DNA of 64,000 bases, taken from positions 12,120 to 76,119 of the forward strand of contig NZ_JBGUWC010000078.1 of NCBI RefSeq assembly GCF_045220775.1. Direction: 5' to 3'. The position numbers and the translations under genes are program-made. Shown in pieces: positions 5,595 to 52,035 of the stretch (position 1 is the first letter of the stretch; every line of letters begins with the position of its first letter). Under the pieces are notes generated by a model. It was given only the letters and a program-made list of their open reading frames with translations. It made no database searches and was not told where the DNA came from. The DNA is from Methanobrevibacter sp. (lineage in GTDB: Archaea > Methanobacteriota > Methanobacteria > Methanobacteriales > Methanobacteriaceae).

Positions 5595-5603
5595 TGTACT
5601 TTC

Positions 5604-6785: not shown

Positions 6786-6786
6786 T

Positions 6787-7557: not shown

Positions 7558-7559
7558 AT

Positions 7560-8570: not shown

Positions 8571-8581
8571 AGAAATACACC

Positions 8582-9322: not shown

Positions 9323-9327
9323 GATTC

Positions 9328-10635: not shown

Positions 10636-10745
10636 AGTTATGACCTTATTAAATTAAATATTATTATATCTATTAATATAATTTTATAAAAAAGAAATAT
10701 TTAAAAATTTCCAAAATATATAATATTAATAAAAAGAAAAATGTA

Positions 10746-11591: not shown

Positions 11592-11608
11592 ATATAAAAG
11601 GTGAAAAA

Positions 11609-13276: not shown

Positions 13277-13293
13277 TTTAATGAGGGATATTA

Positions 13294-23735: not shown

Positions 23736-23741
23736 ATTCGT

Positions 23742-24845: not shown

Positions 24846-24874
24846 TTTAACCAGAAAAAATAAAATGAGAGCGT

Positions 24875-25273
24875 TTAAAGCTCATCAACAACAATAGTTT
24901 TTGTAATGTGGTTGAGTATTCTATCAGTATTCAATGCCCTTCCAATAGCCCAATCAAAAATAATTGGAATCCAATAAATCTTTGTTAAATTGCGCACAAT
25001 AGCTTGAGGCCAGGTAATAAAAGAACCATTTTGAGACCTGACCTGCAGATACATTAATGATTTACCAACAGTAGCAGCGGCACATTTCTCACATAATACA
25101 AAATAAACCATAATTATAATAGGCACAATATATGGAAAATACTGATAAACAGTATAAGAATAGTATGGCTCAATAACTAAGGATAATAAATAAGCTAAAA
25201 TCCACATAAATGCTGAAACCACAAAGAAATCCATTACATATGCAATTATTCTTCTTGAAAATATACTTACCAT
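24875..25273 (-). CDS. RDD-family membrane protein
   Basis: N-terminal RRIIAYVMDFFVV (RDD signature) and three hydrophobic segments. Confidence 0.6.
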   Translation of the reverse strand: MVSIFSRRIIAYVMDFFVVSAFMWILAYLLSLVIEPYYSYTVYQYFPYIVPIIIMVYFVLCEKCAAATVGKSLMYLQVRSQNGSFITWPQAIVRNLTKIYWIPIIFDWAIGRALNTDRILNHITKTIVVDEL

Positions 25274-25282
25274 ATTATCACC

Positions 25283-26305
25283 TTAACAAACTCTAGGAAC
25301 CGGATCTGCAATTGGTGCTTCCAGAATTCTTTCCCCACCAATTGGAGTGTTTACCACAACATAATCCCCTTCAACAACTTCGCCAATAATGGCTGCGTTT
25401 TCACCATACTTTTCGCCCTTAATAGCTTCAAGGATTTCTTCAGCCTTATCGGCCTTAACGCCCATGACGACTTTTCCTTCGTTAGCTACCTCAAATGGGT
25501 CAATGCCTAACATTTCAGATACTGCATGGACCTCATGCCTGATTGGAATCGCATCCTGCTCGAGCACAACTCCAACACCCGCTTTTGATGCCATTTCATT
25601 GATGGCATTTGCAAAGCCTCCTCGGGTAGGATCCTTCATGGCAGTGACTCCACCGATTTCTAAAGCTCTATTAATAATATTCCACATCGGAGCAACGTCA
25701 GATTTCAAATCGGTTTCAAAACCAAATCCTTCTCTAAAGGACATCAAACTCATTCCATGATCGCCCAAAGTACCTGTGATAATTATTTTATCGCCGACTT
25801 CTAAAGTTGAATCGCGAATCACTTCGCCCTTTTTGGCTATTCCTATACCTGTAGTTACCATGACAATCCCTTCAAGCTTGTCTTGAGGCATCACTTTGGT
25901 ATCCCCTGTAATGACAGCCACGTCAACTTCTTCACATGCTTCGTTCAATGATTTCATTATTCTGTCCAAATCCTCAATTGGAAACCCTTCCTGCATGATT
26001 ATTGCATTTGAAATTGCCAACGGACGAGCCCCCATTACAGAAACATCATTGATTGTTCCTGCAGCGGAAATCCTGCCTATATCCCCTCCCGGGAAAAACA
26101 GCGGATCGATAGTATGACCATCAGTCGTAAAGACAATCTCATAATCATCCCCAATAGGGATTGATGCACCGTCATCCAATGCATCCAGACTGATACCACC
26201 GTTTACGCTCTTTTTGGTGATATTGTCAAGGACTGTGCTGGCAATCAAATTGGCCATTACTTCGCCGCCAGCACCATGATTCATATTGATTTTATCGTCT
26301 GACAT
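25283..26305 (-). CDS. hypE: hydrogenase maturation protein HypE
   Basis: PurM-like fold motifs (HGAGG, GDTKV) and the characteristic C-terminal PRVC cysteine. Confidence 0.9.
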   Translation of the reverse strand: MSDDKINMNHGAGGEVMANLIASTVLDNITKKSVNGGISLDALDDGASIPIGDDYEIVFTTDGHTIDPLFFPGGDIGRISAAGTINDVSVMGARPLAISNAIIMQEGFPIEDLDRIMKSLNEACEEVDVAVITGDTKVMPQDKLEGIVMVTTGIGIAKKGEVIRDSTLEVGDKIIITGTLGDHGMSLMSFREGFGFETDLKSDVAPMWNIINRALEIGGVTAMKDPTRGGFANAINEMASKAGVGVVLEQDAIPIRHEVHAVSEMLGIDPFEVANEGKVVMGVKADKAEEILEAIKGEKYGENAAIIGEVVEGDYVVVNTPIGGERILEAPIADPVPRVC

Positions 26306-26411
26306 TTTATCTCCTAATTATAGTAATAATTAATGAAATAATATTTGTAAAAACAAGTATATTAATTTAGTTAAAAAAATATGAAAAAAAGAGAATTTAA
26401 AGAAAAAATCT

Positions 26412-26786
26412 TTAAATTAAAATTCCGTTAATAACTCCATCCTGACCAGGTCTGGATGTTACTTTAGCATTACCTTCAGGGGTTTCTACAATAGCACCTT
26501 TGGTAATGATGTTCCTTCTTACGTAGTTAGGGTTTGCAGTGTTTTCAACTACGTTAAGAATATCTACAACTTTGGTTTTGCCGTTAGCGTCGGTTACGTT
26601 AATTTTGTTGCCTGTTGCTAATCTGAGCTTTTCGTTTCCACCACGGGTTCTAATCTTTCTTAATTTTTTTTCATCTAATCTAGTTTCAGCTGGGTCTCTT
26701 CCGAGTTCTGATTTCCTTTTTCCACGGTGTGCAACATTTCTTGCACCGGAAGGACTCCTTGTTGATTTTCCTTGAGAAATTGACAT
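26412..26786 (-). CDS. rps8e: 30S ribosomal protein S8e
   Basis: [15 protein letters not shown]...[11 protein letters not shown]...KIRTRGGN is typical of S8e. 124 aa. Confidence 0.9.
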
Positions 26787-26978
26787 TTTTTCACCTAATA
26801 AATTTGAATCTATAATTAATAATCGCTGCCATCAAGCCTCTTTTCAATCAAGCTATCGGCAAGATTAATGATAGCCTAATTTTTGAGAGCAAAAAAGAGC
26901 CTTAATGAATAATGATAATAAAATATTAATCTATCATTATATATAAATGTTTTATTTTTAAGGCCAAAAACAGGAAAT

Positions 26979-27227
26979 TCATTTTTTATTTTTTAAAATG
27001 AATTCATCAACTAGCTTATCGAAGTCTTCTTCACTTAATTTTTCATCGGATGCTGCCTCTAAGATTTTTTGAATATCCTCTTTTGAAACTTTATCGCCTA
27101 AAAAATCAATTAATAAATCTTTTAAATCCTCATCATCAATGTAAGCTTCCCCATTTGAAGATATGTTCTCAATGGAACCATCTTCATCCAATATATAATA
27201 AGGAACTTCCTTTCCCATCAAATCCAC
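26979..27227 (-). CDS. small acidic protein (82 aa), unknown function
   Basis: Its start abuts the stop of the upstream gene (27228). Highly D/E-rich. Confidence 0.4.
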   Translation of the reverse strand: MDLMGKEVPYYILDEDGSIENISSNGEAYIDDEDLKDLLIDFLGDKVSKEDIQKILEAASDEKLSEEDFDKLVDEFILKNKK

Positions 27228-27716
27228 CTAATCCTCTTCATCCGGAAATTCATAATAAACGATGCCATACGGATCATCATCGAAAAACCATTCGTTTGGC
27301 TCATCGAAATACTCTTCGTCAATATCCTCATCAAAATCGTCTTCTCCTTCAACCTGAATTATTATGTTGACATCTTCATCGAGATTTTCAACATCAATGC
27401 CCAATTCATCTAAATCAATGACTATTTCATCTTCATCAGTGCCTTCAGGAACAATAATGACTATTTCATCACCTGATTGTATATTAAAATTTGGATTATC
27501 CAAGATATCATCTTCCATTTTCACATTACTAACATTATCAACAGCCAAATTGTCTATATCTCCCTCAAATAATTCAATAGAATTATTATCATCATTACTT
27601 ATAAGCAAATAACCTTTTCCAAACAATTCCTCAATATCTAGATTGCATGAAGGGCAAATGAAACTACCCTGTGATAACCTATAACCACATGAAGGACAAT
27701 AATTAATTTTAACCAT
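27228..27716 (-). CDS. zinc-ribbon protein with long acidic tail
   Basis: N-terminal CPSCGYRL-X9-CPSC zinc ribbon followed by about 120 aa of D/E/I/N-rich sequence. Confidence 0.5.
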   Translation of the reverse strand: MVKINYCPSCGYRLSQGSFICPSCNLDIEELFGKGYLLISNDDNNSIELFEGDIDNLAVDNVSNVKMEDDILDNPNFNIQSGDEIVIIVPEGTDEDEIVIDLDELGIDVENLDEDVNIIIQVEGEDDFDEDIDEEYFDEPNEWFFDDDPYGIVYYEFPDEED

Positions 27717-27791
27717 TTGATAACCTCAACAATTTGTAATTGTTATTATTTATTAAGTTATATTTAAATGGGTATTATTTAGACAGTAACC

Positions 27792-28136
27792 TCAATGGTT
27801 ACTGTCTATCTCAAAGTTGATATTTGGAATTCCAAAGCTGTTTTTGCATCTTATTGAACAAATTTTCAAACCTTCAATGAACATGTTAAAGTATAAGCAT
27901 ATTGCATCGCATTCAATGCTGATTTTAACATTCGAATTTTCCAGAATCTGTTTTGAAGTATTTAAAACTTCAGATGCATTATTAACAAACACTAAGTTCG
28001 GGAAATTGTCCTTGTCGATTCCCAAAAACACGCCGTTTGCAATGCCGTAGTCAGCACAAAATCCGTTTTCACCATCAACTTTTCCAACAAAGGTATCGTT
28101 TACCTCATCATAACTTGAAATCAATCTTTTTTTCAT
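27792..28136 (-). CDS. hypothetical protein, possibly DUF2283-like
   Basis: SSYDEVNDTFVGKV loosely fits the YD..D.L core. Start placed at the second ATG (28136) behind GAGGT; the track ORF starts at 28154. Confidence 0.35.
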   Translation of the reverse strand: MKKRLISSYDEVNDTFVGKVDGENGFCADYGIANGVFLGIDKDNFPNLVFVNNASEVLNTSKQILENSNVKISIECDAICLYFNMFIEGLKICSIRCKNSFGIPNINFEIDSNH

Positions 28137-28316
28137 TGTATCAACCTCACACATAGTATATCTCTAATAAGATATAAATAATACCGAAGAGCATTTGAAA
28201 AGTAATTTAAAGCCATTATAAATTGAATAATCTAATTTTAAAGCAACAAAATTGAAATAATAATGAAAAATTGATTTAGAAAAGTATTATTAATATGTAA
28301 ATCAAAATTAAGATTA

Positions 28317-29009
28317 ATGTCAGATGAGATAATAGAGACAAAAGAACAGTTGGAACTTGAAGCCGAAATCAAATCCCAAGCTCAAAAATTCCTGAAATAC
28401 CTTAATTCAACACTTCCGGAAAGTATGGAACTGGAATATGAAGGATTTTACAGAAGAGGGTTTTTCGTAAGCAAAAAGAGGTATGCCGTAATCGAAGACG
28501 GCGAAATCATAGCAAAAGGATTAGAATTGGTAAGAAGGGACTGGGCTCCAATCGTTAAAAACACCCAAAAATCCGTTTTGATGGCAATACTGAAAGAAGG
28601 AAATTCTGACAAGGCCATCAGTGAAGTCAAAAAGGTTTTGAAAAAAATAAAAAACGGCGAAGTCGACAAAAAGGAAATGATTATCCATACCCAAATCACC
28701 AAACCTCTCGACCAATACAAACAGGTCGGACCTCATGTCATAGCTGCAAGGAGAATAGAGGAACATGGCATTAAAGTTACACGCGGAACCATCATCCAGT
28801 ATATAATCGTTAAAGGAAAAGGATCCATTAGTGAACGCGCCGTTCCTTACGATTATAGTGAAGGATATACCTATGACAAGGACTATTATATCCATAATCA
28901 GCTGATTCCTGCAATCGAAAGAATCATGTATTCATTCGGATACACAAAAAAAGATTTAGAAGACATGGCTCGTGGTGAAGTCCAGCAAAGTTTGGATGCG
29001 TTCTTCTAA
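28317..29009 (+). CDS. polB: family-B DNA polymerase, separately encoded small C-terminal (thumb) subunit
   Basis: EGFYRRGFFVSKKRYAVIEDGEIIAKGLELVRRDWAPIVKN is the K..Y / thumb region of PolB. The ORF has its own ATG with non-coding AT-rich DNA upstream. 230 aa. Confidence 0.8.
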   Translation: MSDEIIETKEQLELEAEIKSQAQKFLKYLNSTLPESMELEYEGFYRRGFFVSKKRYAVIEDGEIIAKGLELVRRDWAPIVKNTQKSVLMAILKEGNSDKAISEVKKVLKKIKNGEVDKKEMIIHTQITKPLDQYKQVGPHVIAARRIEEHGIKVTRGTIIQYIIVKGKGSISERAVPYDYSEGYTYDKDYYIHNQLIPAIERIMYSFGYTKKDLEDMARGEVQQSLDAFF

Positions 29010-42305: not shown

Positions 42306-42330
42306 AAGCATAGTTGATTTAACTATGCTT
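42306..42330. terminator. perfect 10-bp-stem hairpin between convergent genes
   Basis: AAGCATAGTT (42306-42315) / AACTATGCTT (42321-42330) with loop gattt. The right arm overlaps the stop codon of the minus-strand SBP gene. Confidence 0.45.
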
Positions 42331-43294
42331 CCCAATATAACATTTGGTGTGGGATAGTTTGATTTAAAATTCCTAAATCCACTTCTAATTTTTGGAAAGA
42401 ATCCACATTAGCTTTGTAGTCATTATCTAAACCAGAGATGAATGGGAAACTTTCTAATGATTCAGCTTCCACAGCAGGGTCAGTGACAATGTCTTCAGGT
42501 AATAATTCAACTACTTTATCAGTAGTACCGTTTTCGATATTGTCATTGATGAAATTGGTTGCTTCTTCATGGATTGCAACAATTTCTTCAGCAGTGTCTT
42601 TGTGCTCTTTAATGAAGTCATTTGATGCTACAACAACACAACATGGGTGGCCAGGTAAGATTTCAGAGGAATCAGCTAGCTCGTTAATGTTATCACTATT
42701 TTCACCAATACTTACATAAGGCTGGAAAGTAATGGCTGCAGGAATATTATTGGTTTTTAAAGCATCATTAATTGATGGAACTTTCATTGCAGACTCATTA
42801 ATATCATCTAATGATAAATCATGCTGTTGTAAGTAGGCTGAAAGTAACACATGTTGAATTGAAGCTTCACCAGGAGTAGCAATAGTTTTTCCTTTTAATT
42901 GGTTAGCAAAGTAAATATGTGAATCTTCAGTTACAAGAATACCTGATCCTTCAGTTTGAGCAGCGGAAATAACTTTAACAGGTACGCCCGCAGAAATGGA
43001 TGATAATACAGGAGCAATTCCTACATAACCAACATCAACATCTCCACTAGCCATAGCAGTCATCAAGTCTCCACCATTGTTAAATTGGACAAGTTCAGTA
43101 GTAATGTTTTTATCAGCATACATGCCTTTAGCATCAGCGACAAATAAAGCTGCGTCGTGATCTGAAGGCAAGTAACCTATCTTTACAGTGTCGTCTCCTC
43201 CTCCTAAAAAGTCGAAAAGACCAGCACTGGCTGAACCCATTACTAAAAATGCAGCAAGTGCTAACACTAAAACAAATGTAATCTTTTTATTCAT
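42323..43294 (-). CDS. ABC-transporter substrate-binding protein, NMT1/THI5-SsuA/TauA family
   Basis: Signal/anchor MNKKITFVLVLALAAFLVMGSASA, then IGYLPSDHDAALFVA...VDVGYVGIAPV. A paralog of 43464-44399. Confidence 0.75.
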   Translation of the reverse strand: MNKKITFVLVLALAAFLVMGSASAGLFDFLGGGDDTVKIGYLPSDHDAALFVADAKGMYADKNITTELVQFNNGGDLMTAMASGDVDVGYVGIAPVLSSISAGVPVKVISAAQTEGSGILVTEDSHIYFANQLKGKTIATPGEASIQHVLLSAYLQQHDLSLDDINESAMKVPSINDALKTNNIPAAITFQPYVSIGENSDNINELADSSEILPGHPCCVVVASNDFIKEHKDTAEEIVAIHEEATNFINDNIENGTTDKVVELLPEDIVTDPAVEAESLESFPFISGLDNDYKANVDSFQKLEVDLGILNQTIPHQMLYWEA

Positions 43295-43372
43295 TTATAA
43301 TCACCAAATAATTAAGTTAACTTAATTACTAATTATAGTATTATGAATTAACTATAAATATATTACTTAAGT

Positions 43373-43387
43373 TAACAATTGTTATAT
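43373..43387. promoter_or_regulatory. operator-like palindrome TAACAATTGTTA + TAT (site A)
   Basis: Perfect 12-bp palindrome at 43373-43384, about 80 nt upstream of the SBP start codon. The same 13-mer ACAATTGTTATAT recurs at 45309 and 51891. Confidence 0.55.
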
Positions 43388-43463: not shown

Positions 43464-44399
43464 TTAACTACCTTCCCAAAAGATATCCTCTTCAGAAATA
43501 GGATTTTTCAAGACACCCAAATCAACTTCCAGGTTCATGAAGTCCATTACATCCTGTTTGTAACTGTCATCAAGTCCTGAAATGAACGGGAAACTGGAAA
43601 TAGCTACTTTTTCAACTTCAACATCGGAAACTATATCTGATGGAATCATTGAAGCTGCTTCATCAGGATTGCTGTTGATGAATTCTGTAGCGTTTTCATG
43701 AATTTCCAAAATGGTATTGGTTTCATTAGGATGTTCTTCCAGGAACTTATCTGATGCAACTACAACACAACATGGATGATTTGGCAAAATGTCCTGTGAA
43801 CCTGCAAGCACTGTAGCACCGTTTTTCTCAGCGATAGTGACATAAGGCTCAAAGGTTATCATTCCATCAATCTTATTTGTCTTGAGCGCATCATTCATTG
43901 AAGGGACTTTCATTGAAGATACTTTTAAATCATTTAAAGACATTCCATTCTGTTCCAAGTAATATTGAAGCAGCATGTATTGGATTGAAGCTTCACCAGG
44001 AGTTGCAATAGTTTTTCCTGCAAGGTCAGAAACTGAACTGATTCCTGAGTTTTTAGCAACGACCAATCCGCTTCCTTCAGTTTGAGCGGCGGAAATGACT
44101 TTAACAGGAACCCCTTTTTGAATAGATGCCAAAACAGGAGTGATACCTACATAACCGACATCAACATCTCCACTGGCCATGGCGGTCATCAGGTCACCAC
44201 CATTGTTAAACTGAACCAATTTGGTGTTGATGCCGTTAGAGGCAAATTGTCCTTGAGCATCTGCAACGAATAGCGCTGCATCGTGATCGGAAGGCAGATA
44301 TCCAATAGTTACGGTTTCGCCACTGCTTGTTAGGAAGAATGCTCCAACAGCAACAATGGCTATGATTGCAATAATGATTGCGATAATTTTATTATCCAT
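43464..44399 (-). CDS. ABC-transporter substrate-binding protein, NMT1/THI5-SsuA/TauA family (paralog)
   Basis: N-terminal TM anchor, then IGYLPSDHDAALFVADAQG...VDVGYVGITPV. Long identical peptide stretches are shared with the neighbouring paralog. Confidence 0.75.
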   Translation of the reverse strand: MDNKIIAIIIAIIAIVAVGAFFLTSSGETVTIGYLPSDHDAALFVADAQGQFASNGINTKLVQFNNGGDLMTAMASGDVDVGYVGITPVLASIQKGVPVKVISAAQTEGSGLVVAKNSGISSVSDLAGKTIATPGEASIQYMLLQYYLEQNGMSLNDLKVSSMKVPSMNDALKTNKIDGMITFEPYVTIAEKNGATVLAGSQDILPNHPCCVVVASDKFLEEHPNETNTILEIHENATEFINSNPDEAASMIPSDIVSDVEVEKVAISSFPFISGLDDSYKQDVMDFMNLEVDLGVLKNPISEEDIFWEGS

Positions 44400-44449
44400 T
44401 TTATCACCTATTATTAAATATACAGAAAAAATTATTAAAGGTTTTGATT

Positions 44450-45063
44450 ATGGTAGCTCAAAAAATTGACCAGTGCATGAAACCTCACGGCGAAGAGGGT
44501 ATTGAAACCATCAAAAGAATGAATGAAGACCATAAAAACATCACTGAATTCGCATTTGGCTGCATCAATATAGGAAAAGACTATAGAATACTTGATATTG
44601 GCTGGGCGGTGGAGTCAACATTGAAAAATTCCTTAAAGCGACTGAAAATAATGTGGATGGACTGGATTATTCGGAAGTGTCCATCAGCGAATCAACCAAA
44701 AGAAATCAGAATGCTGTTAAAGAGGGAAGATGTACACTGATCCAAGCAGACGTTACGGATATGCCCATTGAAGATGAAACATATGAACTCGTCAGCGCAT
44801 TTTCAACAATATTCTTCTGGCCGGATTTAATTGAAACCTTTAAGGAGGTCCTGAGAATCGTCAAACCGAACGGGCAGTTCATGATAGCTCAGGGAACCGA
44901 CGGTACAAATCCGGAAGACAAAGAATGGATCAATCCTGATGAGGGAATAAACGTTTATACAGGAGATGAACTGGAAAGATATCTGTTGGATGCTGGTTTT
45001 AAAAGTGTAGAAATCTTTAAAAAGGAAGGAACTTATTTATTAGTGGTTATCGCTGAAAAATAG
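44450..45063 (+). pseudogene. class I SAM-dependent methyltransferase disrupted by a 1-nt deletion inside motif I
   Basis: Frame A reads ...YRILDIGWAVEST. Frame B continues GGGVNIEKFLKATENNVDGLDYSEVS... Inserting one base after GGC TG (about 44604) restores ILDIGCGGGV. Confidence 0.75.
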
Positions 45064-45064
45064 C

Positions 45065-45265
45065 TTAACCACCATAAATAATCTGAACTAAATTAATTTC
45101 ATCGCCATCATTGATTACACTGTCTTCGATTGTCAACTCGCCATTCTGCTTTGCAACGATGGTTTGGGCAGACAATTCCAATTCATCCAATAAATTCCTT
45201 ATTGTAAAATTCTCTTTTAAATCTCTTGTTTCATTTATGTCTTTAAATTTTAACTTATATTCCAT
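45065..45265 (-). CDS. thiS: ThiS/MoaD-family ubiquitin-like sulfur-carrier protein (C-terminal GG)
   Basis: 66 aa ending DGDEINLVQIIYGG, which aligns with the ThiS tail (DGD.I.L.Q.I.GG). Confidence 0.75.
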   Translation of the reverse strand: MEYKLKFKDINETRDLKENFTIRNLLDELELSAQTIVAKQNGELTIEDSVINDGDEINLVQIIYGG

Positions 45266-45306
45266 AATTTCACATCATCTTAAACTTCAATATTTCAGCA
45301 AAATAT

Positions 45307-45321
45307 TAACAATTGTTATAT
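45307..45321. promoter_or_regulatory. operator-like palindrome TAACAATTGTTA + TAT (site B)
   Basis: Perfect 12-bp palindrome at 45307-45318, about 45 nt upstream of the ThiS-like start. Confidence 0.55.
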
Positions 45322-45456
45322 TATTTTATTACAATATAAGTTTTTCTAAATAATATCAAATATAATATAAAACTGTTCAAATACGAAATTACAAAAAATT
45401 CCAATTTCAAAACATTTATATATAAATATTACACAATTATAATTAATGGAAAAAAA

Positions 45457-45471
45457 TAACTATTGTTATAT
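45457..45471. promoter_or_regulatory. operator-like palindrome, one mismatch (TAACTATTGTTA + TAT) (site C)
   Basis: 19-nt identity with site B apart from one base (TAAC[A/T]ATTGTTATATTAT). Lies in the same divergent intergenic region, about 175 nt upstream of ATG 45647. Confidence 0.45.
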
Positions 45472-45603
45472 TATAAAATTTCGAAGGGATTTTACATTTT
45501 TCCATTAAGCTCGGGTAAAAATCTTTCAAATAAATTGTTTTATAATCTCTAAAAATATATATTAAAGTAGATTATGAAAAGACTCCTTAAAATGAACTGT
45601 GAA

Positions 45604-45624
45604 AAGGCATCAACTTGATGCCTT
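45604..45624 (+). promoter_or_regulatory. 21-bp perfect palindrome / leader hairpin upstream of the LarE-like gene
   Basis: AAGGCATCAA c TTGATGCCTT. It is the only GC-containing element in a ~380-bp AT-rich spacer and ends 12 nt before the AGAGGA ribosome-binding site. Confidence 0.5.
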
Positions 45625-45646
45625 AAATTATTTAAAAGAGGATAAC

Positions 45647-46657
45647 ATGAGCTTAGAAAATAAGATAAGTATTGTTGAAGATATCTTAAAAGACAAAAAA
45701 GTGGCCATTGGCTTTTCAGGCGGCGCTGATTCTACATTAATAGCATATTTATCTTCAAAAGTTGCAGCTGACACATTAGCAATTACAATCGATAACCATT
45801 TGCTTCCGACAGGTTTTGTTGAAAATACGAAAAGAATTGCAGAATCCTTTGGAATAAAACATGAAATAGTGAACATTGACTTTTATGAAGATGAATACTT
45901 CCTAAGCAACGATTCAAAAAGATGTTATACCTGCAGAAACCTGATGTATTCAAAAATCAAAGAGGTTGCAGGTAAAAATGGTTTTGATTTTATTTGTGAT
46001 GGAAATAACATCAGCGATTTGGTAAACGACAGACCTGGAATACTGATAACTTACAAAAATGACTTTAAAACTCCATTCATTGAAGCGAAACTAACTTCAA
46101 AGGAAATACACAAATACTTAAATGACAATGGCATTCCATATTCCCGATCAACAACATGTCTTGCAACAAGGCTTCCGACAAATACTCAAACGACTCATGA
46201 GAAAATCAAGAGGATAAGCTATTGCGAAGATTATATTCTAGCAAACACCAATTGCGAAATTGTCAAAGTTAGAGATTTAGGGGAACTTGGTATTATTGAA
46301 GTGGACAACATAAATGAATTATTGAGTAAAGATAAATTTATTAACATCAACGATGAATTAAAAAGCAAAGGATTCAAAAAGATTGCACTAAATTTATCAC
46401 AAATCGATGATGATGAATACATTGTCATTGAGTATAATGGCGGTTCATTTTCATACCCTCTTCCGTTTACAATAAACATTGAAAATACAAAAAATCAAAT
46501 CAAAGATGCCGTTTTCAGTGATGATGAAAGAATTGAAGTTGAAAATATAGAAATATTCGAAAATGGATTGATTAAAGGTCATGATTTTGAAACTTATGAA
46601 GATGCGCTAGATGCATTTATGGGTGTATTGCCAAAACTAAGGAGAAATATTAGGTGA
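45647..46657 (+). CDS. PP-loop ATP pyrophosphatase, LarE/TIGR00268-like sulfur transferase with C-terminal extension
   Basis: KVAIGFSGGADSTLIAYL PP-loop. Cys triad CYTC...TTC as in cluster-binding LarE-type enzymes. ATG 45647 behind AGAGGA is preferred to the GTG 45599 of the track. Confidence 0.65.
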   Translation: MSLENKISIVEDILKDKKVAIGFSGGADSTLIAYLSSKVAADTLAITIDNHLLPTGFVENTKRIAESFGIKHEIVNIDFYEDEYFLSNDSKRCYTCRNLMYSKIKEVAGKNGFDFICDGNNISDLVNDRPGILITYKNDFKTPFIEAKLTSKEIHKYLNDNGIPYSRSTTCLATRLPTNTQTTHEKIKRISYCEDYILANTNCEIVKVRDLGELGIIEVDNINELLSKDKFININDELKSKGFKKIALNLSQIDDDEYIVIEYNGGSFSYPLPFTINIENTKNQIKDAVFSDDERIEVENIEIFENGLIKGHDFETYEDALDAFMGVLPKLRRNIR

Positions 46658-46661: not shown

Positions 46662-47417
46662 ATGCCAACAAGATACATAGGTGATGGATACTGGGAAATT
46701 GCTTCCCGTCAAATGAGTATAGTAACTAGAAGCGAACAGGAAAGATTTAAAGATGCTAAAATCACAGTTATCGGCTGTGGCGGAATCGGTGGTGAAACCA
46801 TAGAAATGCTTGCAAGAATGGGAATTGGAGAACTTGTCCTTGTTGATAAAGATGCATTTGACCTATCAAATCTAAACAGACAGACTTTAGCCACAATTAA
46901 TGATTTAGGGCTTGATAAAAGTGCAGTAGCAAAAGAAAAGGTCAGATTAATTAACCCTTACGTTAAAGTAACTACATTCAATGAACATGTGGATCAGACA
47001 AACATCGATAAAGTAATCGGAGATTCAAATATCGTCATTGACGCATTAGATAATGTTTTGACAAGAGTAATCGTTTCAAGAACTGCAAAAGAAAAAGGAA
47101 TCCCATACATTCACGGAGCAATCCATGGAACATTAGGACAGATTACAGTATTCCTGCCAAACAGCGACAAGACATATGAAGAGATGTTTAATCTTCCATC
47201 ATTAGGTAAAGAATTAACAGAAGAAACAATTGAAGCTTTAAAAGGAGTGACATCCGGAGTTCCACCAGTAATTGGACCTACTCCAAACCTGATTGGATGT
47301 CTTGAAGCATTTGAAGCTTATAAAATAATAACTGGAGTCGGCAAAGTCACCGTTGCTCCAAAAATATTGACATTTGATTTATTGGATTTAAGTTCATTTT
47401 CATTAGATGAACTATAA
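46662..47417 (+). CDS. ThiF/MoeB/HesA-family E1-like adenylyltransferase
   Basis: ITVIGCGGIGGETIEMLARMGIGELVLVDKDAFDLSNLNRQ. There is no rhodanese domain and no CxxC zinc pairs. Confidence 0.85.
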   Translation: MPTRYIGDGYWEIASRQMSIVTRSEQERFKDAKITVIGCGGIGGETIEMLARMGIGELVLVDKDAFDLSNLNRQTLATINDLGLDKSAVAKEKVRLINPYVKVTTFNEHVDQTNIDKVIGDSNIVIDALDNVLTRVIVSRTAKEKGIPYIHGAIHGTLGQITVFLPNSDKTYEEMFNLPSLGKELTEETIEALKGVTSGVPPVIGPTPNLIGCLEAFEAYKIITGVGKVTVAPKILTFDLLDLSSFSLDEL

Positions 47418-47422: not shown

Positions 47423-48253
47423 CTATTTTTCCAAATTTACGCGTTCGGGAGCTGTGAAAACAGTGAATCTATTATCCCGAACAAAACCAACCATCGTAAT
47501 GTTGCCTGCACGAGCCACATCAATACCGGATGATGCCGGTGCCGCATTTGAAATAATGATTGGAATTCCAACCCTGATTACCTTAATCAGCATGTCCGCA
47601 GGCATTCTTCCACTATAAGATATATAACATTTTGAGAAATCATATCCCTCTTTTGAAGCCGCTCCAATTACCTTATCAACTGCAACATGACGGCTTACGT
47701 CCTCACGAATGATAATCTTATCTTCATATTTCAATTGGGCGACATGGACCCCACCTGTTTTCTGCCAGATTTTAGCCTCATCGGTCAAATGTTGAATGTC
47801 CTTGATAATTTGAGTTGCATCAATCCTTAAATCTGATGTGTTTGGTTCGATTGTTTTTAGCTCGGATCTGATTCCACCGGCATTATCGGAATTTACCCCC
47901 TGATATTCTAGCAGTCTGCACACACAGGCATGCTCGCAATTGCCCTTTCTCTCCTGAACAATACCTTCCTGTTCCAAATCCTCTTCAGGGTCATGAGTAA
48001 GCTTTGTAGAGACCAGAACATTGGTTCCATCAAGTTCAATGGAGTTGATGTCAGAATAGTCTTTAATCAACCCTTCCCCTAAACAATATCCTATAGCAAA
48101 GTCCTTTAAATCCTTAGGATATGTTGAAAACTTACGGGGAGGCAAATAATCAATGAACAAATAAGTGTATTCATCATCAACGCTGTTTTCCTTAATTGTT
48201 TCATAGCCTCCATCTTTCCATTGAATAACATCAGTTTGTCTTATGAACTCCAT
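47423..48253 (-). CDS. fdhD: FdhD-family sulfurtransferase (formate dehydrogenase accessory protein)
   Basis: TGGVHVAQL, EDVSRHVAVDKVIGA and SGRMPADMLIKV..GIPIIISNAAPASSGI...MVGFVR blocks. The Cys loop reads NCEHACVC. Confidence 0.85.
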   Translation of the reverse strand: MEFIRQTDVIQWKDGGYETIKENSVDDEYTYLFIDYLPPRKFSTYPKDLKDFAIGYCLGEGLIKDYSDINSIELDGTNVLVSTKLTHDPEEDLEQEGIVQERKGNCEHACVCRLLEYQGVNSDNAGGIRSELKTIEPNTSDLRIDATQIIKDIQHLTDEAKIWQKTGGVHVAQLKYEDKIIIREDVSRHVAVDKVIGAASKEGYDFSKCYISYSGRMPADMLIKVIRVGIPIIISNAAPASSGIDVARAGNITMVGFVRDNRFTVFTAPERVNLEK

Positions 48254-48270
48254 AAAATCACCTTAACATA

Positions 48271-49659
48271 CTATTTGCCGACCAATGCAATGTTTAGATA
48301 TTTCTTCAATTCATCACACTCTTCCGGATCGGCATTCTTCAGACTATTAATGCTTGTTTGCTTGTTATTTTTTGACAATTCAACATGAGTGTTAATGTAT
48401 CCATGTTCCTTAATCAGTTTCAGAAGCCTTTTTCCATATGTCAAATCAGGATTTGAAATACGATTAAGCATTAGACTTAGAGTGCGGTCTTCATCTATGC
48501 CCAGCACTTCACACATGCCATGCATTTCATTGATGATATCTGCTGCCCAGCTTTTAAGGGTTACTTCCTCGCCATCCCTAAGCAATCTCATTGATTCGAC
48601 ATAAGCAGATTCAGCAGTTGCCTCTTCATTATATTTGGCTTCCTTTTGCCAATCCTCATAATCGGACTCATCCTTAATGAACATATATATCAAAAACAGA
48701 TGCAGGAATTTCATGTCATGCATTACAAGTCCACATTTATAAAATGGATTGATATCCAAAGTCCTTATCTCAATATATTCAATTCCATCATTTTCTAAAG
48801 AATTCAACAAGTCTTGAGGGTTCTTTGGCTTTAATCTAATCTGAGTGTATAGCTCTTTTGCCTCGGACAAATCCCCCTCATCGATGAATTTGTTAATGTC
48901 ACTAACAAATTCCTTCACTGAGTCGTAAGATGGATATAGCTCCTTTAAGTTCTTATATCCGCATGAAGCGTTTCTAAATGATGGACCTTTTGTTGAGTAG
49001 AAACTTCCGTAATCGTCCTGCTCATCCATCAGATGCAAACAATCATTAGAGAATGTCTTATGTGAACCTATTGAACAGCCGGTCAGATATATAATCAGCC
49101 AGCAGTATCTTAGGTAGTTTCTAGCTATCTTCAAATAAACGTTATCCTTAAACTCCTTAAAAGTTAGATCAGAGCCTTCCATGCCATATAATTTGTTTAA
49201 TAAATCATCTGAAAATGAAAAATTAAAGTGAACTCCTGAAATCATCTGCTTTTTGACACCGTATTTTTTTGCCAGATCTTCACGGTATTTTTGAGAAGAT
49301 ATTCCCTCTTCGGAATATTGGGCAATTGGAATCTGGTCCCAATAAGGCAAAATACATGGAATTGATTGAAACCACAGATATTCATCTTCAGGCAGTGATG
49401 CATTGACAATGTCAGATAACAATGAAAAATTGTCAAATGCCTTGTCAATCGAATCGAAAGTCGGTGTGATTATTTCGATTTGGCTTTCTGAAAAATCCGT
49501 GGTTACAACAGGATTTGTTAGCTTATCACCAAATACCTCCGGATGAGGGGTTAATGATAGCTTTCCATCACCTTTTGCCCTTAAGCTTTCCCATTCTATC
49601 CCAAACGAACCAGCCAAGATTTCATCTACAGATAACTTTGATACGTTTAATAAATTCAT
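48271..49659 (-). CDS. gshA: glutamate--cysteine ligase, bacterial GshA type
   Basis: FGIEWESLRAKGDGKLSLTPHPEVFGDKLTNPVVTTDFSESQIEIITP parallels the E. coli GshA N-terminal block. ATG 49659 behind GGAGG is preferred to the TTG at 49671. Confidence 0.8.
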   Translation of the reverse strand: MNLLNVSKLSVDEILAGSFGIEWESLRAKGDGKLSLTPHPEVFGDKLTNPVVTTDFSESQIEIITPTFDSIDKAFDNFSLLSDIVNASLPEDEYLWFQSIPCILPYWDQIPIAQYSEEGISSQKYREDLAKKYGVKKQMISGVHFNFSFSDDLLNKLYGMEGSDLTFKEFKDNVYLKIARNYLRYCWLIIYLTGCSIGSHKTFSNDCLHLMDEQDDYGSFYSTKGPSFRNASCGYKNLKELYPSYDSVKEFVSDINKFIDEGDLSEAKELYTQIRLKPKNPQDLLNSLENDGIEYIEIRTLDINPFYKCGLVMHDMKFLHLFLIYMFIKDESDYEDWQKEAKYNEEATAESAYVESMRLLRDGEEVTLKSWAADIINEMHGMCEVLGIDEDRTLSLMLNRISNPDLTYGKRLLKLIKEHGYINTHVELSKNNKQTSINSLKNADPEECDELKKYLNIALVGK

Positions 49660-49682
49660 TTCTCCTCCCAAAAATTATGAAT

Positions 49683-51074
49683 CTAATCTAATTTACCATA
49701 ATCTCTAATTAATTCTTCCAATTCAGCACCGTTATGCATTGATGTGATAATGTCCTTTCCAGGATTAGTGTGCTGTTTAATGCGCTCATATAACGGATTC
49801 AAGAAAATCTCTTCACCAATGCCTCTTTCTTTTAGTCCTCTGTCTGCTAAATCAACAACATCCTTTGTTAATTTACATAAATCATTTTTATCAATAAATG
49901 CTGGAAGTTCATCCTGTATCAGCAGTTTTCTGAGTTCCCCTGCAGTGTACCCCTTGTGATATATTACATTATCATTATTAATTAACTCTTCAAGCTCGTC
50001 CAATTTCTCCTTAAGGCCTAAATGGAATGCTGCAACAGACATTGAGTCCCTAATCGGCTGAGTGCAGACGCTTCTGAATTCCACTGTTCCCCTGAATGTC
50101 AGATTAATGAATTTGAACGGCCTTAAATATTTGATGTCCTTGATGCATGGCTTTATTTCAATTTCCCTGTACTCTCCATTGCTGTATATTTCACCGCAAA
50201 CATAATCCTTTTTAAAGTATTCGAGCAGATTCATTGACGGGAAGTTGATGTATGCCCCATCACGCATTACGCAATAGATATTTAAGGATTCCAGATATGC
50301 CTGCAAATCATCGAGATTTTTAAAGTCAACATCATACATACCAATGTTGTGAGGATTTACTCCATGTGTTGAATATTCCCATAAAGCATCCCTAAAGCAG
50401 GTTACATGCTTGTTTTCATCCACCAGAACTGAATTTGAGAACAGCAATGCCTTTATAGGTTCGATTTTTGAGAATACATTGATTGTCTTTACCAGCTCAT
50501 CCTTATATACATCCAGCTGAACCTGTGAAGCGGATGAAAACATTCCATATTCCGGATAATCATGAAAATGCATAGGAACATTCCTGTAGTTCTTAAAAGA
50601 TTTCAGATGATGATAAAGCATCAGATATCTCTCGGACGGAATCGGCTGATTCTTGTTATATTTTCTATATGGATTTATGCCCATTCCGGTCAATGTGTGG
50701 TTAAATTCCTCAAAGCATTCCTTTGTAAATGCATAATAATCGCAAAAACGGTCGTATATGGAAAACAGATCCTTTTCCCTGCCCATCGCAAATTCGATAT
50801 TATTGTATGAACAGTCATAACAGAATATGTCATCATTATTGTTGTTTTTAAGAGAAAAGACATTTCCATCATAGTCAATGCCATCTTCCTTAAAATCTGA
50901 GTACTGTTTTTGAAACTTGTCAGTGACCTTATGAACAACACCAAAGTCCACTGCCGTCTTATCAAGATTAATAATGGGAATTTCAATCTCAATACCAACA
51001 AAGTTCTTCTTCTGTTCCGTTGGCTTTATGAATTCATCATATAATTTATTCCTCACCGTTTCTTCACTAATCAT
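49683..51074 (-). CDS. glutamate-cysteine-ligase-superfamily carboxylate-amine ligase (GCS2/EgtA-like), substrate unknown
   Basis: FVGIEIEIPI, NIEFA, SSASQVQLDV and GTVEFRS follow the GCL/GS fold pattern. ATG 51074 overlaps the upstream stop by 8 nt. Confidence 0.6.
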   Translation of the reverse strand: MISEETVRNKLYDEFIKPTEQKKNFVGIEIEIPIINLDKTAVDFGVVHKVTDKFQKQYSDFKEDGIDYDGNVFSLKNNNNDDIFCYDCSYNNIEFAMGREKDLFSIYDRFCDYYAFTKECFEEFNHTLTGMGINPYRKYNKNQPIPSERYLMLYHHLKSFKNYRNVPMHFHDYPEYGMFSSASQVQLDVYKDELVKTINVFSKIEPIKALLFSNSVLVDENKHVTCFRDALWEYSTHGVNPHNIGMYDVDFKNLDDLQAYLESLNIYCVMRDGAYINFPSMNLLEYFKKDYVCGEIYSNGEYREIEIKPCIKDIKYLRPFKFINLTFRGTVEFRSVCTQPIRDSMSVAAFHLGLKEKLDELEELINNDNVIYHKGYTAGELRKLLIQDELPAFIDKNDLCKLTKDVVDLADRGLKERGIGEEIFLNPLYERIKQHTNPGKDIITSMHNGAELEELIRDYGKLD

Positions 51075-51864
51075 TATTATCAACCTGATTTATTGATTTT
51101 AAAAAATCTTCAATTGCTTTTTCATGTTCTTCAGTCAATATAAACTCGTTTTGATGCTCTTCACTTTCAAAAATGATATTTCCATCAATCAGACCGAATA
51201 GCTTATTTAATTCTACAGGTTTCCAACCTTCATCATCCGTTAGTGGAGTTGAAGCAACCAAAAATCCTTCATCGTTTTTCAAGTAATAAAGCGAATCCCT
51301 CATATTCGAATGGATATAAGTCAAGTCGCCATCGTAAATCATTAGATTAACCTTATTATTTTTAGATAAGTCAACAATAATGTCATTTAATAGATTAAAC
51401 CTCTCTTTTATGGTGGACAGGCCACCTTTATTTCTCTCAAACTCGTTAACCTTATCTATGATGTATAAAAGTATTCGCTCAGAATCAGTATCCCCATTTT
51501 CCTTATCCTTGTATTCATCGAGTTTAGGATAATCGAATATGGTTCCGTTGTGTATCAACATCCATGATCTGTTATTGTCATCAGCTTCTGTGAAAGGGTG
51601 GCAATTGGGAGATATGATTTCACCCACAGTAGCCAATCTGATGTGAGCGAACACGTTTTTTCCAACAACAGGATGGGATAATATATCTTTCAAGTGTTGG
51701 CTACATGTTGCTTTTACAGGCTCTTTATCTATAACAAATTCATCGGATTGCATAGTGGCCAATCCCCATCCGTGCGGATGCTCTTCTGAGTGATTGTAAA
51801 AACATTCAAGACACTTGTTAATTTGTTTTGGCGTATTTGAATTAAAACAAAAAATTTCACACAT
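51067..51864 (-). CDS. class II (Ntn) glutamine amidotransferase-like protein, YafJ/EgtC type
   Basis: Begins MCEIF (catalytic Cys2) with HPHGWGLA downstream. GGAGGG ribosome-binding site 9 nt upstream. Confidence 0.8.
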   Translation of the reverse strand: MCEIFCFNSNTPKQINKCLECFYNHSEEHPHGWGLATMQSDEFVIDKEPVKATCSQHLKDILSHPVVGKNVFAHIRLATVGEIISPNCHPFTEADDNNRSWMLIHNGTIFDYPKLDEYKDKENGDTDSERILLYIIDKVNEFERNKGGLSTIKERFNLLNDIIVDLSKNNKVNLMIYDGDLTYIHSNMRDSLYYLKNDEGFLVASTPLTDDEGWKPVELNKLFGLIDGNIIFESEEHQNEFILTEEHEKAIEDFLKSINQVDNND

Positions 51865-51887: not shown

Positions 51888-51909
51888 ATCACAATTGTTA
51901 TATTGTGAT
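51888..51909. promoter_or_regulatory. operator-like element (site D): TCACAATTGTTA nested in ATCACAAT-N6-ATTGTGAT
   Basis: 13-mer ACAATTGTTATAT at 51891-51903. 8-bp inverted arms at 51888-51895 and 51902-51909. The element lies between a minus-strand TTTATATAA box (51932-51940) and the RBS of the amidotransferase gene. Confidence 0.55.
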
Positions 51910-52035
51910 AAGTATTGTTTTATAACTCATGTTATATAAACATTAACATGACCATATTTAAATTCATGACAATTTTAATATAGGAATAGGGAAAAAGAAC
52001 TTATATAATAATTAAATTCATTAATATTGATTGCT

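Follow-up and report, generated by a model that had tools for sequence, protein, structure and literature searches.

Six described systems are closest to the locus analysed here. GshF (GshAB), the bifunctional glutathione synthetase of Firmicutes and Pasteurellaceae, is a protein of roughly 750 aa that combines an N-terminal gamma-ECL domain with an ATP-grasp glutathione synthetase. The mycobacterial ergothioneine pathway uses a gamma-ECL (EgtA) and an amidohydrolase (EgtC), and its EgtB needs O2. In the yeast DUG pathway of glutathione degradation, Dug3 is a GATase_4-type Ntn protein that works only in complex with a partner and cleaves or transfers the gamma-glutamyl group of GSH (PMC6508711). 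Plants and alpha-proteobacteria use a group 3 glutamate-cysteine ligase (GCL). Haloarchaea combine GshA with a bis-gamma-glutamylcystine reductase, the only established gamma-Glu-Cys thiol system in archaea. No GshB or GshF ATP-grasp is reported in archaea (PMC7278568). Finally, the class II glutamine amidotransferases (AsnB, GlmS, PurF) use N-terminal Cys glutaminase chemistry, and Chromatiaceae contain a glutathione amide.

We analysed a 64,000-nucleotide stretch of Methanobrevibacter sp. DNA (the window). A sequence-only reading had described an operon of an EgtC/YafJ-like amidotransferase, a GCS2/EgtA-like ligase, a GshA and FdhD, and had proposed a pathway for an unknown gamma-glutamyl thiol. 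The observation was confirmed, as all four ORFs exist on the minus strand (Table 1). The proposed interpretation was supported only in part. A conserved, functionally linked unit centred on a bona fide gamma-Glu-Cys ligase, with no ergothioneine genes nearby, is supported, and an unknown gamma-glutamyl/cysteine-derived product is a reasonable reading. We find a tightly conserved unit of three of these genes, namely a class II Ntn amidotransferase-like protein (GATase_4), a very divergent ligase that we call GCL2, and a GshA of the GshF N-domain type. This rumen/gut methanogen shares the unit with hundreds of gut Clostridia, and it probably makes an as yet unidentified cysteine-based small thiol. 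In the literature searched, only the GshA homolog of Methanosphaera/Methanobrevibacter had been noted (PMC7278568).

Table 1. Features of the locus, in window coordinates.
Position	Strand	Feature	Remarks
51067..51864	-	GATase_4/YafJ-type stand-alone class II (Ntn) glutamine-amidotransferase-like protein	265 aa, starts MCEIF; first gene of the operon
49683..51074	-	GCL2, divergent ATP-dependent carboxylate-amine ligase of the GCL/GS superfamily	ATG start; alternative coordinate 51083
48271..49659	-	GshA, gamma-glutamylcysteine ligase of the GshF N-domain type, without the ATP-grasp (GshB) half	ATG start; alternative coordinate 49671
47423..48253	-	FdhD-family sulfurtransferase	Own RBS; probably co-transcribed here
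51888..51940	-	Promoter region of the operon	Followed by the RBS GGAGGG
51932..51940		TATA-like box	TTTATATAA
51908..51921		Degenerate operator copy	
51888..51901		Operator	ATAACAATTGTGAT
45306..45319		Operator copy upstream of ThiS	TTAACAATTGTTAT
45065..45265	-	ThiS	
45456..45469		Operator copy upstream of LarE-like and ThiF	ATAACTATTGTTAT
45599..46657	+	LarE-like	
46662..47417	+	ThiF	
43372..43385		Operator copy upstream of the SsuA-like gene	TTAACAATTGTTAT
42323..43294	-	SsuA-like solute-binding protein	
43464..44399		Paralog of the SsuA-like protein	SsuA_fam TIGR01728, 179.7 against a cutoff of 163.5

The spacing of the genes was examined in detail. The 8-nt overlap (ATGATTAG) between the first two genes is correct if GCL2 starts at the ATG given in Table 1, which matches the 463-aa homologs. 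The 17-nt gap before FdhD is also correct. The 11-nt gap before GshA that had been reported holds only for a TTG start, whereas the ATG has a GGAGGA ribosome-binding site and matches the 462-aa orthologs, which gives a gap of 23 nt. In a domain scan of about 57 ORFs of the window, no EgtB-, EgtD- or EgtE-type domain was found, in agreement with the earlier reading.

We annotated the four proteins by profile and structure comparison. The first protein matches GATase_4 (PF13230) at 1.8e-30 and 106 bits against a cutoff of 23, and its best PDB relative by profile is 1te5/PA1307 (1.7e-22). Cys2, Arg76, Asn106-Gly107 and Asp127 are conserved in 76-78 of 78 orthologs. The protein is YafJ/PA1307-like. 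It scores 66.8 bits against an EgtC model cutoff of 218.65, and by profile it is no closer to EgtC (1.5e-4) than to the GlmS or PurF glutaminase domains (8e-9 and 8e-7), so the suggested role as an EgtC-type amidohydrolase is not established. GshA matches Glu_cys_ligase at 1.1e-90 and NF002688 at 404 bits over model positions 12-420 of 756, and aligns to Pasteurella multocida GshF (3ln7) at 4e-65 with the catalytic motifs conserved.

GCL2 had been read as GCS2/EgtA-like, but it is not EgtA/YbdK-like. It has no Pfam hit and only a weak hit to plant-type GCL (9e-10; TIGR01436 at 37.6 bits against a cutoff of 463). However, the family profile matches BjGCL over its full length at 2e-31, and the ExE, E, RY (Arg220 equivalent), QxxxD, LFxNS, R and ExR motifs are kept. 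The AF2 model has a pLDDT of 96, and a Foldseek search gives 2gwc at a TM of 0.75-0.80. The closest relative of GCL2 is thus plant-type (group 3) GCL. FdhD matches TIGR00129 at 196.8 bits against a cutoff of 140.9 and aligns to Escherichia coli FdhD (4pde) at 3.8e-21. Its loop GNCEHACVC, which the sequence-only reading had pointed out, is real and conserved in 23 of 25 Methanobrevibacter orthologs.

We then assessed whether the gene order is conserved across species, a point that had been set beforehand as a check. At least 574 species genomes encode GCL2 relatives, and the arrangement recurs in 80 of the 80 species loci inspected and is therefore not due to chance. GATase_4 lies directly upstream of GCL2 in 44/44 archaeal and 27/32 bacterial loci. 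GshA is adjacent to GCL2/GATase in 31/34 archaeal and 19/22 bacterial loci, although the gene order differs between the domains. Some genomes have GATase-GCL2 without an adjacent GshA (species loci L022, L028 and L046) or GCL2 alone (L055, L056, L070 and L072), and more distant GCL2 relatives at 33-36% identity stand alone. The module is not methanogen-specific, as it is widespread in rumen and gut Clostridia. FdhD, in contrast, is not part of the conserved module, because it is adjacent to GshA in only 12/34 archaeal loci and in no bacterial locus.

GshA and GCL2 also occur as natural fusion proteins in both orders (GshA+GCL2 at 884 aa and GCL2+GshA at 887-889 aa). Each fusion cluster has 5-10 full-length members from independent sources, and where the context was read the GATase gene lies directly upstream. 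In bacteria, the trio sits among cysteine and Fe-S genes, and its neighbours include Rrf2 (IscR/CymR-like), NifS/NifU, CysK, CysE, cystathionine lyase, PatB, TrxB-like, ThiF and LarE.

A previously unnoticed palindrome, ATAACAATTGTTAT, precedes the trio operon, LarE-ThiF, ThiS, free-standing FdhD and SsuA-like binding proteins across Methanobrevibacter and Methanosphaera. Out of 117 matches in archaea, 105 lie upstream of trio or sulfur genes, against 1 match in 372 kb of bacterial loci. A copy with at most 1 mismatch lies within 200 nt upstream of the GATase gene in 43/47 archaeal loci, and the promoter region is conserved across species in an alignment. The operator precedes LarE in 13/17 and binding protein genes in 18/20 archaeal loci, and FdhD carries its own copy in 7 loci where it is found elsewhere. 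These genes therefore look co-regulated, and FdhD belongs to the same candidate regulon. This putative operator, inferred from sequence alone, lends support to the earlier suggestion of a tie to ThiS/LarE/ThiF.

Taken together, we consider, with moderate confidence, that the locus encodes a self-contained three-enzyme module that builds and processes a gamma-glutamylcysteine-based small molecule as part of sulfur/cysteine metabolism. What rests on sequence comparison is that GshA is a canonical GshF-N-type gamma-Glu-Cys ligase, that GCL2 is an intact ATP-dependent amide ligase with a predicted plant-GCL fold, and that the GATase_4 protein has a complete Cys-nucleophile active site that recognises an L-gamma-glutamyl or glutamine moiety. 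The reactions themselves are inferred. In this view, GshA makes gamma-Glu-Cys, GCL2 works physically together with GshA, as the two are fused in some bacteria much like the two halves of GshF, and GCL2 forms a second amide bond on or with gamma-Glu-Cys. The Ntn enzyme would then cleave a gamma-glutamyl amide. This last step has precedent, as characterised stand-alone GATase_4 proteins cleave gamma-Glu-Cys bonds (EgtC, PMC7278568; Dug2-Dug3, PMC6508711). We tentatively prefer a protect-ligate-deprotect flow (Cys -> gamma-Glu-Cys -> gamma-Glu-Cys-X -> Glu + Cys-X), which would yield a cysteinyl-amide type thiol. We note, however, that no characterised GS/GCL-superfamily ligase is known to activate anything but a Glu gamma-carboxylate, and GCL2 keeps most residues shared with plant GCL. 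Activation of the Cys carboxylate of gamma-Glu-Cys would therefore be unprecedented for the fold. Co-transcribing a synthetic enzyme with a hydrolytic one could also mean turnover rather than biosynthesis. We are more confident in the general claim of a functionally linked module for a gamma-Glu-Cys-derived metabolite, with FdhD not a core member. The module was probably exchanged once between rumen/gut Clostridia and the Methanobrevibacter/Methanosphaera lineage, and in the archaea it is wired into the candidate regulon marked by the operator.

Two alternatives are unlikely but survive about equally well. In the first, the GATase is a true glutaminase subunit that feeds NH3 to GCL2, which amidates a carboxylate of gamma-Glu-Cys to give, for example, gamma-Glu-Cys-NH2, a minimal glutathione amide, and all three enzymes would be strictly biosynthetic. 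This is consistent with the position of the GATase gene, which often overlaps GCL2, with its complete glutamine-binding and oxyanion set, and with its profile proximity to GlmS/PurF. Exactly the three activities needed are present, and no fourth conserved gene exists. One GATase-GCL2 fusion protein was found, but it is a singleton on one 3.2-kb contig and could come from a frameshift, whereas GshA-GCL2 fusions are common. No characterised stand-alone GATase_4 protein has been described as an ammonia donor, and the acceptor-pocket Arg (the BjGCL Arg220 equivalent) is invariant in the trio-type clade, which suggests an amino-acid acceptor rather than an ammonia one.

In the second alternative, GshA and GCL2 act together as a non-ATP-grasp analogue of GshF to make a glutathione-like tripeptide, gamma-Glu-Cys-X, as the end product, and a Dug3-like GATase degrades it to mobilise stored cysteine sulfur. 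The fusions mimic the GshF architecture, Dug2-Dug3 cleaves GSH, the module sits in a candidate sulfur regulon and in cysteine-related neighbourhoods, and archaea are not reported to have GshB or GshF. However, a purely degradative enzyme would not be expected to be the most strictly linked partner of GCL2 and the first gene of the operon, GshF-carrying bacteria are not known to encode such a partner, and simultaneous expression would create a futile ATP-consuming cycle.

The wider version put forward in the sequence-only reading, in which all four genes and ThiS, LarE and ThiF form one biochemical pathway where a gamma-glutamyl-protected intermediate is thiolated or processed by the sulfur-carrier proteins, is doubtful. 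The shared operator precedes all these genes in Methanobrevibacter and Methanosphaera, the genes stay near each other despite rearrangements, and ThiF, LarE and TtcA-rhodanese genes also occur next to the trio in about 6 of 34 bacterial loci. Nevertheless, adjacency is facultative, as FdhD lies within the flanks in 19/34 archaeal loci and ThiF in 20/34, and the sulfur-carrier genes are absent from most bacterial loci. Fusion-carrying bacteria have a free-standing two-gene unit, and co-regulation fits a general sulfur regulon equally well. Least likely are two parallel gamma-glutamyl ligases with different amine acceptors plus a gamma-glutamyl hydrolase or transferase, serving as a salvage, detoxification or gamma-glutamyl-cycle system for cysteine analogues or adducts rather than the synthesis of a new thiol, because, although GCL2 resembles Glu-activating plant GCL, GCL enzymes are promiscuous towards acceptors, Dug2-Dug3 can transfer gamma-glutamyl groups and GCL2 occurs alone in some genomes, the fusion of two parallel isozymes in both orders is hard to rationalise and no transporter or additional processing enzyme is conserved with the trio.

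We compared the module with each of the known systems. Class II amidotransferases share the N-terminal Cys glutaminase chemistry, and amidation of a thiol peptide would give a product like glutathione amide, but here the GATase is a separate protein and the putative synthetase has a predicted GCL fold, a pairing of which no example has been described to our knowledge. In common with the ergothioneine pathway, a gamma-Glu-Cys ligase is co-encoded with a stand-alone Cys-nucleophile class II GATase-like protein, and making and then removing a gamma-glutamyl group is a possible parallel. However, EgtB, EgtD and EgtE are missing from the ORFs of the window that were scanned, neither ligase is EgtA/GCS2-type and the organisms are strict anaerobes. 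Compared with the DUG pathway, the partner of the GATase_4-type protein is a ligase and not a WD40-M20 peptidase, and the genes are operonic with the synthetic GshA. GCL2 shares with group 3 GCL the full-length fold and most catalytic motifs, but the identity is only 17%, the EPGGQ motif is replaced by an invariant DCSYNN, and GCL2 has two invariant Cys residues (C88 and C337), lacks the plant redox disulfides and is encoded with a GATase. Like the haloarchaeal system, this is an archaeal use of a GCL without GshB, but the GCL lineage is different, the haloarchaeal system has no second ligase and no amidotransferase, and the system here looks horizontally shared with Clostridia. Relative to GshF, GshA is a close homolog of the N-terminal domain and in some Clostridia is fused to a second ligase in an architecture of comparable length, but the partner is a GCL-superfamily ligase instead of an ATP-grasp glutathione synthetase, and a class II amidotransferase-like protein is added as a third component.

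We first verified the gene arrangement. Four minus-strand ORFs are encoded in the order GATase, GCL2, GshA and FdhD: a GATase_4 class II amidotransferase-like protein starting MCEIF (1.8e-30), a divergent ligase that we call GCL2, a Glu_cys_ligase family protein (1.1e-90) and a protein that passes the FdhD equivalog cutoff. GCL2 has no Pfam hit and only a weak plant-type GCL match, and its best hits are 97% identical and annotated Methanobrevibacter. The junction sequences confirm the 8-nt overlap and the 17-nt gap described in the sequence-only reading. They also show that GshA most likely starts at an ATG behind a GGAGGA ribosome-binding site, so that the gap before it is 23 nt rather than the 11 nt proposed. 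Apart from this gap, the observation of a compact four-gene arrangement was borne out. About 57 ORFs across the window were scanned and none is EgtB-, EgtD- or EgtE-like, in agreement with that reading.

Coordinates of the features discussed in the text (window coordinates unless another locus is named)
Feature	Coordinates	Strand	Remark
Four-gene arrangement	47423-51864	-	
GATase	51067-51864	-	
GCL2	49683-51074	-	
GshA	most likely start 49659	-	
FdhD	47423-48253	-	Cys loop at residues 103-112
Candidate operator copy	51888-51901		
Candidate operator copy	45306-45319		
Candidate operator copy	45456-45469		
Candidate operator copy	43372-43385		
SsuA/NMT1-type solute-binding protein	42323-43294	-	
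SsuA/NMT1-type solute-binding protein, paralog	43464-44399	-	
UbiE/Methyltransf_11-type methyltransferase	44444-45063	+	two overlapping ORFs, 98 aa and 136 aa
Ortholog of the methyltransferase in another Methanobrevibacter species (locus L001)	4429-5043		intact 204-aa gene
Phosphonate and phosphocholine-type glycan decoration cluster	2106-14316		
PEP mutase fused to a cytidylyltransferase	9328-10635		
TPP-dependent phosphonopyruvate-decarboxylase-like gene	4479-5594		
Cluster of small nuclease and replication-related ORFs	23010-29009		
Two GshA copies in one Methanobrevibacter genome (locus L013)	1932-3308 and 8414-9799		

We then searched for relatives using a profile of GCL2 built from a 10-sequence alignment, and detected them in at least 574 species-level genomes. 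The 80 loci retrieved belong to Methanobrevibacter, Methanosphaera and rumen or gut Clostridia (Ruminococcus, Eubacterium, Lachnospiraceae, Butyricicoccus, Coprococcus and Acutalibacteraceae), and one comes from a MAG labelled Bacteroidales. Among loci with enough flank, GATase lies directly upstream of GCL2 in 44/44 archaeal and 27/32 bacterial loci, and GshA is adjacent in 31/34 and 19/22. The usual gene order is GATase-GCL2-GshA in the archaea and GshA-GATase-GCL2 in the bacteria. We rejected chance adjacency because conservation is 80 of 80 loci. One Methanobrevibacter genome has two GshA copies near the module, whereas three others (loci L022, L028 and L046) have GATase-GCL2 with no adjacent GshA, and the GATase-GCL2 pair is therefore the most stable unit. 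FdhD, which the sequence-only reading counted as a fourth member, is next to GshA in only 12/34 archaeal loci and in 0 bacterial loci. It usually travels with a convergent ThiF-LarE pair, and this block sits on either side of the trio in different species. The core is therefore a three-gene module with FdhD as a facultative neighbour, and FdhD was rejected as a core member.

Fusion proteins provided a second line of evidence. An exhaustive HMMER search gave 672 cluster representatives for GCL2, 115 of them below 1e-30, and several of these are fusions. GshA-GCL2 proteins have 884 aa, the named member being from a MAG labelled Eubacterium sp., and GCL2-GshA proteins have 887-889 aa. Each of these fusion clusters has 5-10 full-length members from independent sources and, where the context was read, a GATase gene lies immediately upstream. 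A GATase-GCL2 fusion of 717 aa (P0123) was also found, but it is a singleton on one 3.2-kb contig and we gave it little weight.

The sequences of the three proteins are consistent with intact enzymes. The GATase scores 106.2 bits against the PF13230 gathering score of 23. Its Cys2, directly after Met1, is conserved in 76 of 76 orthologs with an aligned N-terminus, and Arg76, Asn106-Gly107 and Asp127, the residues that bind the glutamine/gamma-glutamyl moiety and form the oxyanion hole, are conserved in 78/78 orthologs and align with 1te5. In a profile search of the PDB it is closest to this uncharacterised protein, PA1307 (1te5, 1.7e-22). GshA scores 304 bits against the Glu_cys_ligase gathering score of 27 and aligns over its whole length with the gamma-ECL domain of Pasteurella GshF (3ln7, 4e-65), with the GxExES, TDFSESQIEIITP, YRE..YG, SGxHxNFS and IExRxxDxNPF motifs conserved. 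The predicted structure of GCL2 is confident (pLDDT 96, pTM 0.94). GCL2 keeps the metal and phosphoryl-transfer motifs and the Arg of the RY motif. Of the BjGCL substrate-contact residues only Arg220, which lies in the acceptor pocket, was mapped, to this Arg and through the Cys178 numbering offset. The EPGGQ motif is replaced by an invariant DCSYNN. Two cysteines of GCL2 (C88 and C337) are conserved, one within DCSYNN and invariant in the 10 closest relatives, the other three residues after the ExR motif and invariant in 30 diverse relatives. They could be a redox switch or a substrate or metal contact. Relatives of GCL2 at 33-36% identity in Floricoccus and Pseudoramibacter stand alone.

In Clostridia the trio is often headed by an Rrf2 (IscR/CymR-like) regulator and lies divergent from NifS-NifU (loci L073, L078, L070; L050-L053, L059, L064, L076), which links it to the control of Fe-S cluster assembly and cysteine metabolism. 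It also sits next to CysK, CysE and a cystathionine lyase, a PatB C-S lyase and a thioredoxin-reductase-like flavoprotein, and TtcA-rhodanese, ThiF-family proteins and LarE. Rfam scans of the window and of nine bacterial loci found no riboswitch or T-box, and thus no RNA-based clue to the inducing signal.

The promoter of the archaeal operon is conserved across species and holds one or two copies of the palindrome ATAACAATTGT[T/G]AT between a TATA-like box and the ribosome-binding site. A 9-bp inverted repeat in the window, TATCACAAT-N6-ATTGTGATA, was considered as the operator and rejected because it is not conserved. In the window, copies of the palindrome with at most one mismatch lie only upstream of four units: the trio operon, ThiS, LarE-ThiF and an SsuA-like binding-protein gene. 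At up to two mismatches there are 6 matches against 1.5 expected, and 0 of 100 shuffles reach 6. Across 47 archaeal loci (L001-L047; 555 kb), 105 of 117 matches lie within 200 nt upstream of a labelled trio or sulfur gene, whereas the bacterial loci hold one match in 372 kb. Among loci having the gene, a copy precedes GATase in 43/47, LarE in 13/17, SsuA-like binding proteins in 18/20, FdhD in 7/23, ThiF in 5/24 and ThiS in 4/15. This indicates a common regulator, most plausibly a sulfur-responsive one, and defines a candidate regulon across Methanobrevibacter and Methanosphaera. It gives partial support to the proposal of the sequence-only reading that the trio is linked to ThiS, LarE and ThiF, but at the level of regulation, not of shown chemistry.

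Two of the putative regulon members deserve further description. The two paralogous SsuA/NMT1-type solute-binding proteins of the window carry N-terminal hydrophobic anchors, but no ABC permease or ATPase gene lies nearby. In most related genomes one of them sits directly upstream of the GATase gene, and the ligand could be a sulfonate such as CoM or taurine. FdhD scores 196.8 bits against the TIGR00129 cutoff of 140.9. Its loop GNCEHACVC (C-x3-C-x-C) carries three Cys residues, aligns with E. coli GRTGCGVCG, replacing the E. coli G-C-G-V-C-G loop, and is almost invariant in 25 Methanobrevibacter orthologs. Where FdhD is not in the trio operon it carries its own copy of the candidate operator, so it appears to be regulated with the sulfur genes, not visibly with fdh genes. 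No fdhA/fdhB gene was identified in the window ORFs scanned.

In a neighbour-joining tree the archaeal GCL2 sequences form one clade, sister to the clostridial clade. One contig labelled uncultured Bacillales (locus L055, CAMOWA010000006.1) carries a GCL2 that nests inside the archaeal clade, with no GATase or GshA gene nearby. At 28% GC, similar to the 25% of a Methanobrevibacter locus (L045), it is probably mis-binned archaeal DNA, although a separate transfer of GCL2 alone is also possible. The module is restricted to host-associated Methanobacteriales but broadly distributed in Clostridia, a pattern that suggests a single transfer, probably from bacteria to archaea. GC content shows no recent-transfer signal.

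Elsewhere in the window, the methyltransferase gene appears split into two overlapping ORFs whereas the ortholog is intact, and this is probably a frameshift or a pseudogene. The glycan decoration cluster contains, besides the PEP mutase fusion and the phosphonopyruvate-decarboxylase-like gene, three LicD genes, an IspD-like cytidylyltransferase, a glycerol-3-phosphate dehydrogenase and an SNF-family transporter. The nuclease and replication-related cluster includes a PD-(D/E)XK/Cas4-like protein, an SNase-like protein and a 230-aa DNA polymerase B fragment, and may be a remnant of an integrated element.

The sequence-only reading interpreted the genes as a candidate pathway for an unidentified gamma-glutamyl thiol, and our analysis supports this interpretation in part. 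Homology establishes a gamma-Glu-Cys ligase, a second intact acyl-phosphate-type amide ligase and a gamma-glutamyl/glutamine-specific Cys-nucleophile enzyme tied to the second ligase. The activities themselves, including the formation of gamma-Glu-Cys by GshA, are inferred from sequence, as are the physical cooperation of the two ligases, the further ligation of gamma-Glu-Cys and the subsequent cleavage of a gamma-glutamyl amide. Among specific chemistries we tentatively prefer a protect-ligate-deprotect scheme giving Cys-X, because both characterised stand-alone GATase_4 enzymes, EgtC and Dug3, cleave gamma-Glu-Cys bonds, although this scheme needs Cys-carboxylate activation by GCL2. Glutamine-dependent amidation uses exactly the three activities present, but GATase-GCL2 fusions are nearly absent and we consider it doubtful. 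Equally doubtful is a GSH-like tripeptide with Dug3-like turnover: the GshA-GCL2 fusions mimic GshF, yet a degradative enzyme as the most tightly linked partner is odd. The main caveat concerns these three readings, since characterised GS/GCL-fold ligases are not known to activate a carboxylate other than the Glu gamma-carboxylate and GCL2 retains most plant-GCL residues, so that activation of the Cys carboxylate would be a first for the fold. Parallel gamma-glutamyl ligases for salvage are unlikely, because the fusion of two parallel isozymes is hard to explain, even though GCL2 keeps most plant-GCL residues. We rejected pseudomurein or CoM/CoB biosynthesis because the module is shared with Clostridia, which have none of these.

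The literature that we could search mentions only the GshA homolog (Msp_0528 and its Methanobrevibacter relatives), as a possible gamma-EC ligase lacking the GshB domain (PMC7278568), and searches for the three-gene combination found nothing. A paper on glutathione in E. rectale (PMC13445673) does not involve these genes. A survey of amidoligases (Iyer et al. 2009; PMC3268129) reportedly discusses operons of GCS-like ligases with class II GATases. The major small thiols of strictly anaerobic Clostridia, and of methanogens apart from CoM and CoB, are essentially unknown. A single compact module, whose GCL2 relatives occur in at least 574 species-level genomes of rumen and gut anaerobes including the dominant ruminant methane producers, therefore gives a concrete, testable candidate for that missing chemistry. 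It would also extend the reaction repertoire of the GCL/GS fold, and it provides a clean case of bacteria-archaea gene sharing in the gut. The conserved candidate operator gives a first handle on sulfur-responsive regulation in Methanobrevibacter, which is relevant to methane-mitigation targets. A more far-reaching possibility, which we regard as doubtful on present evidence, is that the trio makes a previously unknown low-molecular-weight thiol serving as the main cysteine-derived redox or sulfur buffer of many rumen and gut Clostridia and of Methanobrevibacter/Methanosphaera. GCL2 would then be either the first GS/GCL-fold enzyme to catalyse the second ligation on gamma-Glu-Cys or the first GCL-fold glutamine-dependent amidoligase. 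The pathway would sit under a newly recognised archaeal sulfur regulon, marked by the operator ATAACAATTGTTAT, that also controls ThiS, ThiF, LarE, FdhD and sulfonate-type binding proteins.

We compared the module, which has an unidentified product and, in the archaea, a newly noticed operator and candidate regulon, to known gamma-glutamylcysteine-based systems. An EgtC identity of the GATase is not supported: it scores 66.8 bits against the TIGR03442 cutoff of 218.65, and by profile it is nearer to GlmS (8e-9) and PurF glutaminase domains than to EgtC structures (1.5e-4). No FGE-sulfatase/DinB_2 or Methyltransf_33 domain was detected among the window ORFs scanned, no such gene family recurs in the 36 loci whose neighbours were clustered (L048-L083), and none was seen among the genes annotated in the other loci. 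Ergothioneine was rejected because no EgtB or EgtD is present among the window ORFs scanned and the organisms are anaerobes. GshA scores 404 against 425 for NF002688, of which only the N-terminal half of the two-domain model can match, and 237 against 393 for TIGR01434. The bacterial trio versions also score best against the GshF model. In contrast to GshF, however, the 462-aa protein lacks the ATP-grasp half, matching only model positions 12-420 of 756, and no ATP-grasp gene lies in the locus or recurs among neighbours. GCL2 of the window has no PF04107 hit, only some of its homologs hit weakly, and YbdK structures match only partly (4e-6; TM 0.56 on the query). Its best structural match by Foldseek is Brassica GCL (TM 0.75-0.80, 17% identity), and the family profile matches plant GCL (2gwc/6gmo) end to end at 2e-31. 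GCL2 thus shares the predicted fold and catalytic core of plant-type (group 3) glutamate-cysteine ligase but, at 37.6 bits against the TIGR01436 cutoff of 463.15, it is a new subfamily and not a member of that equivalog.
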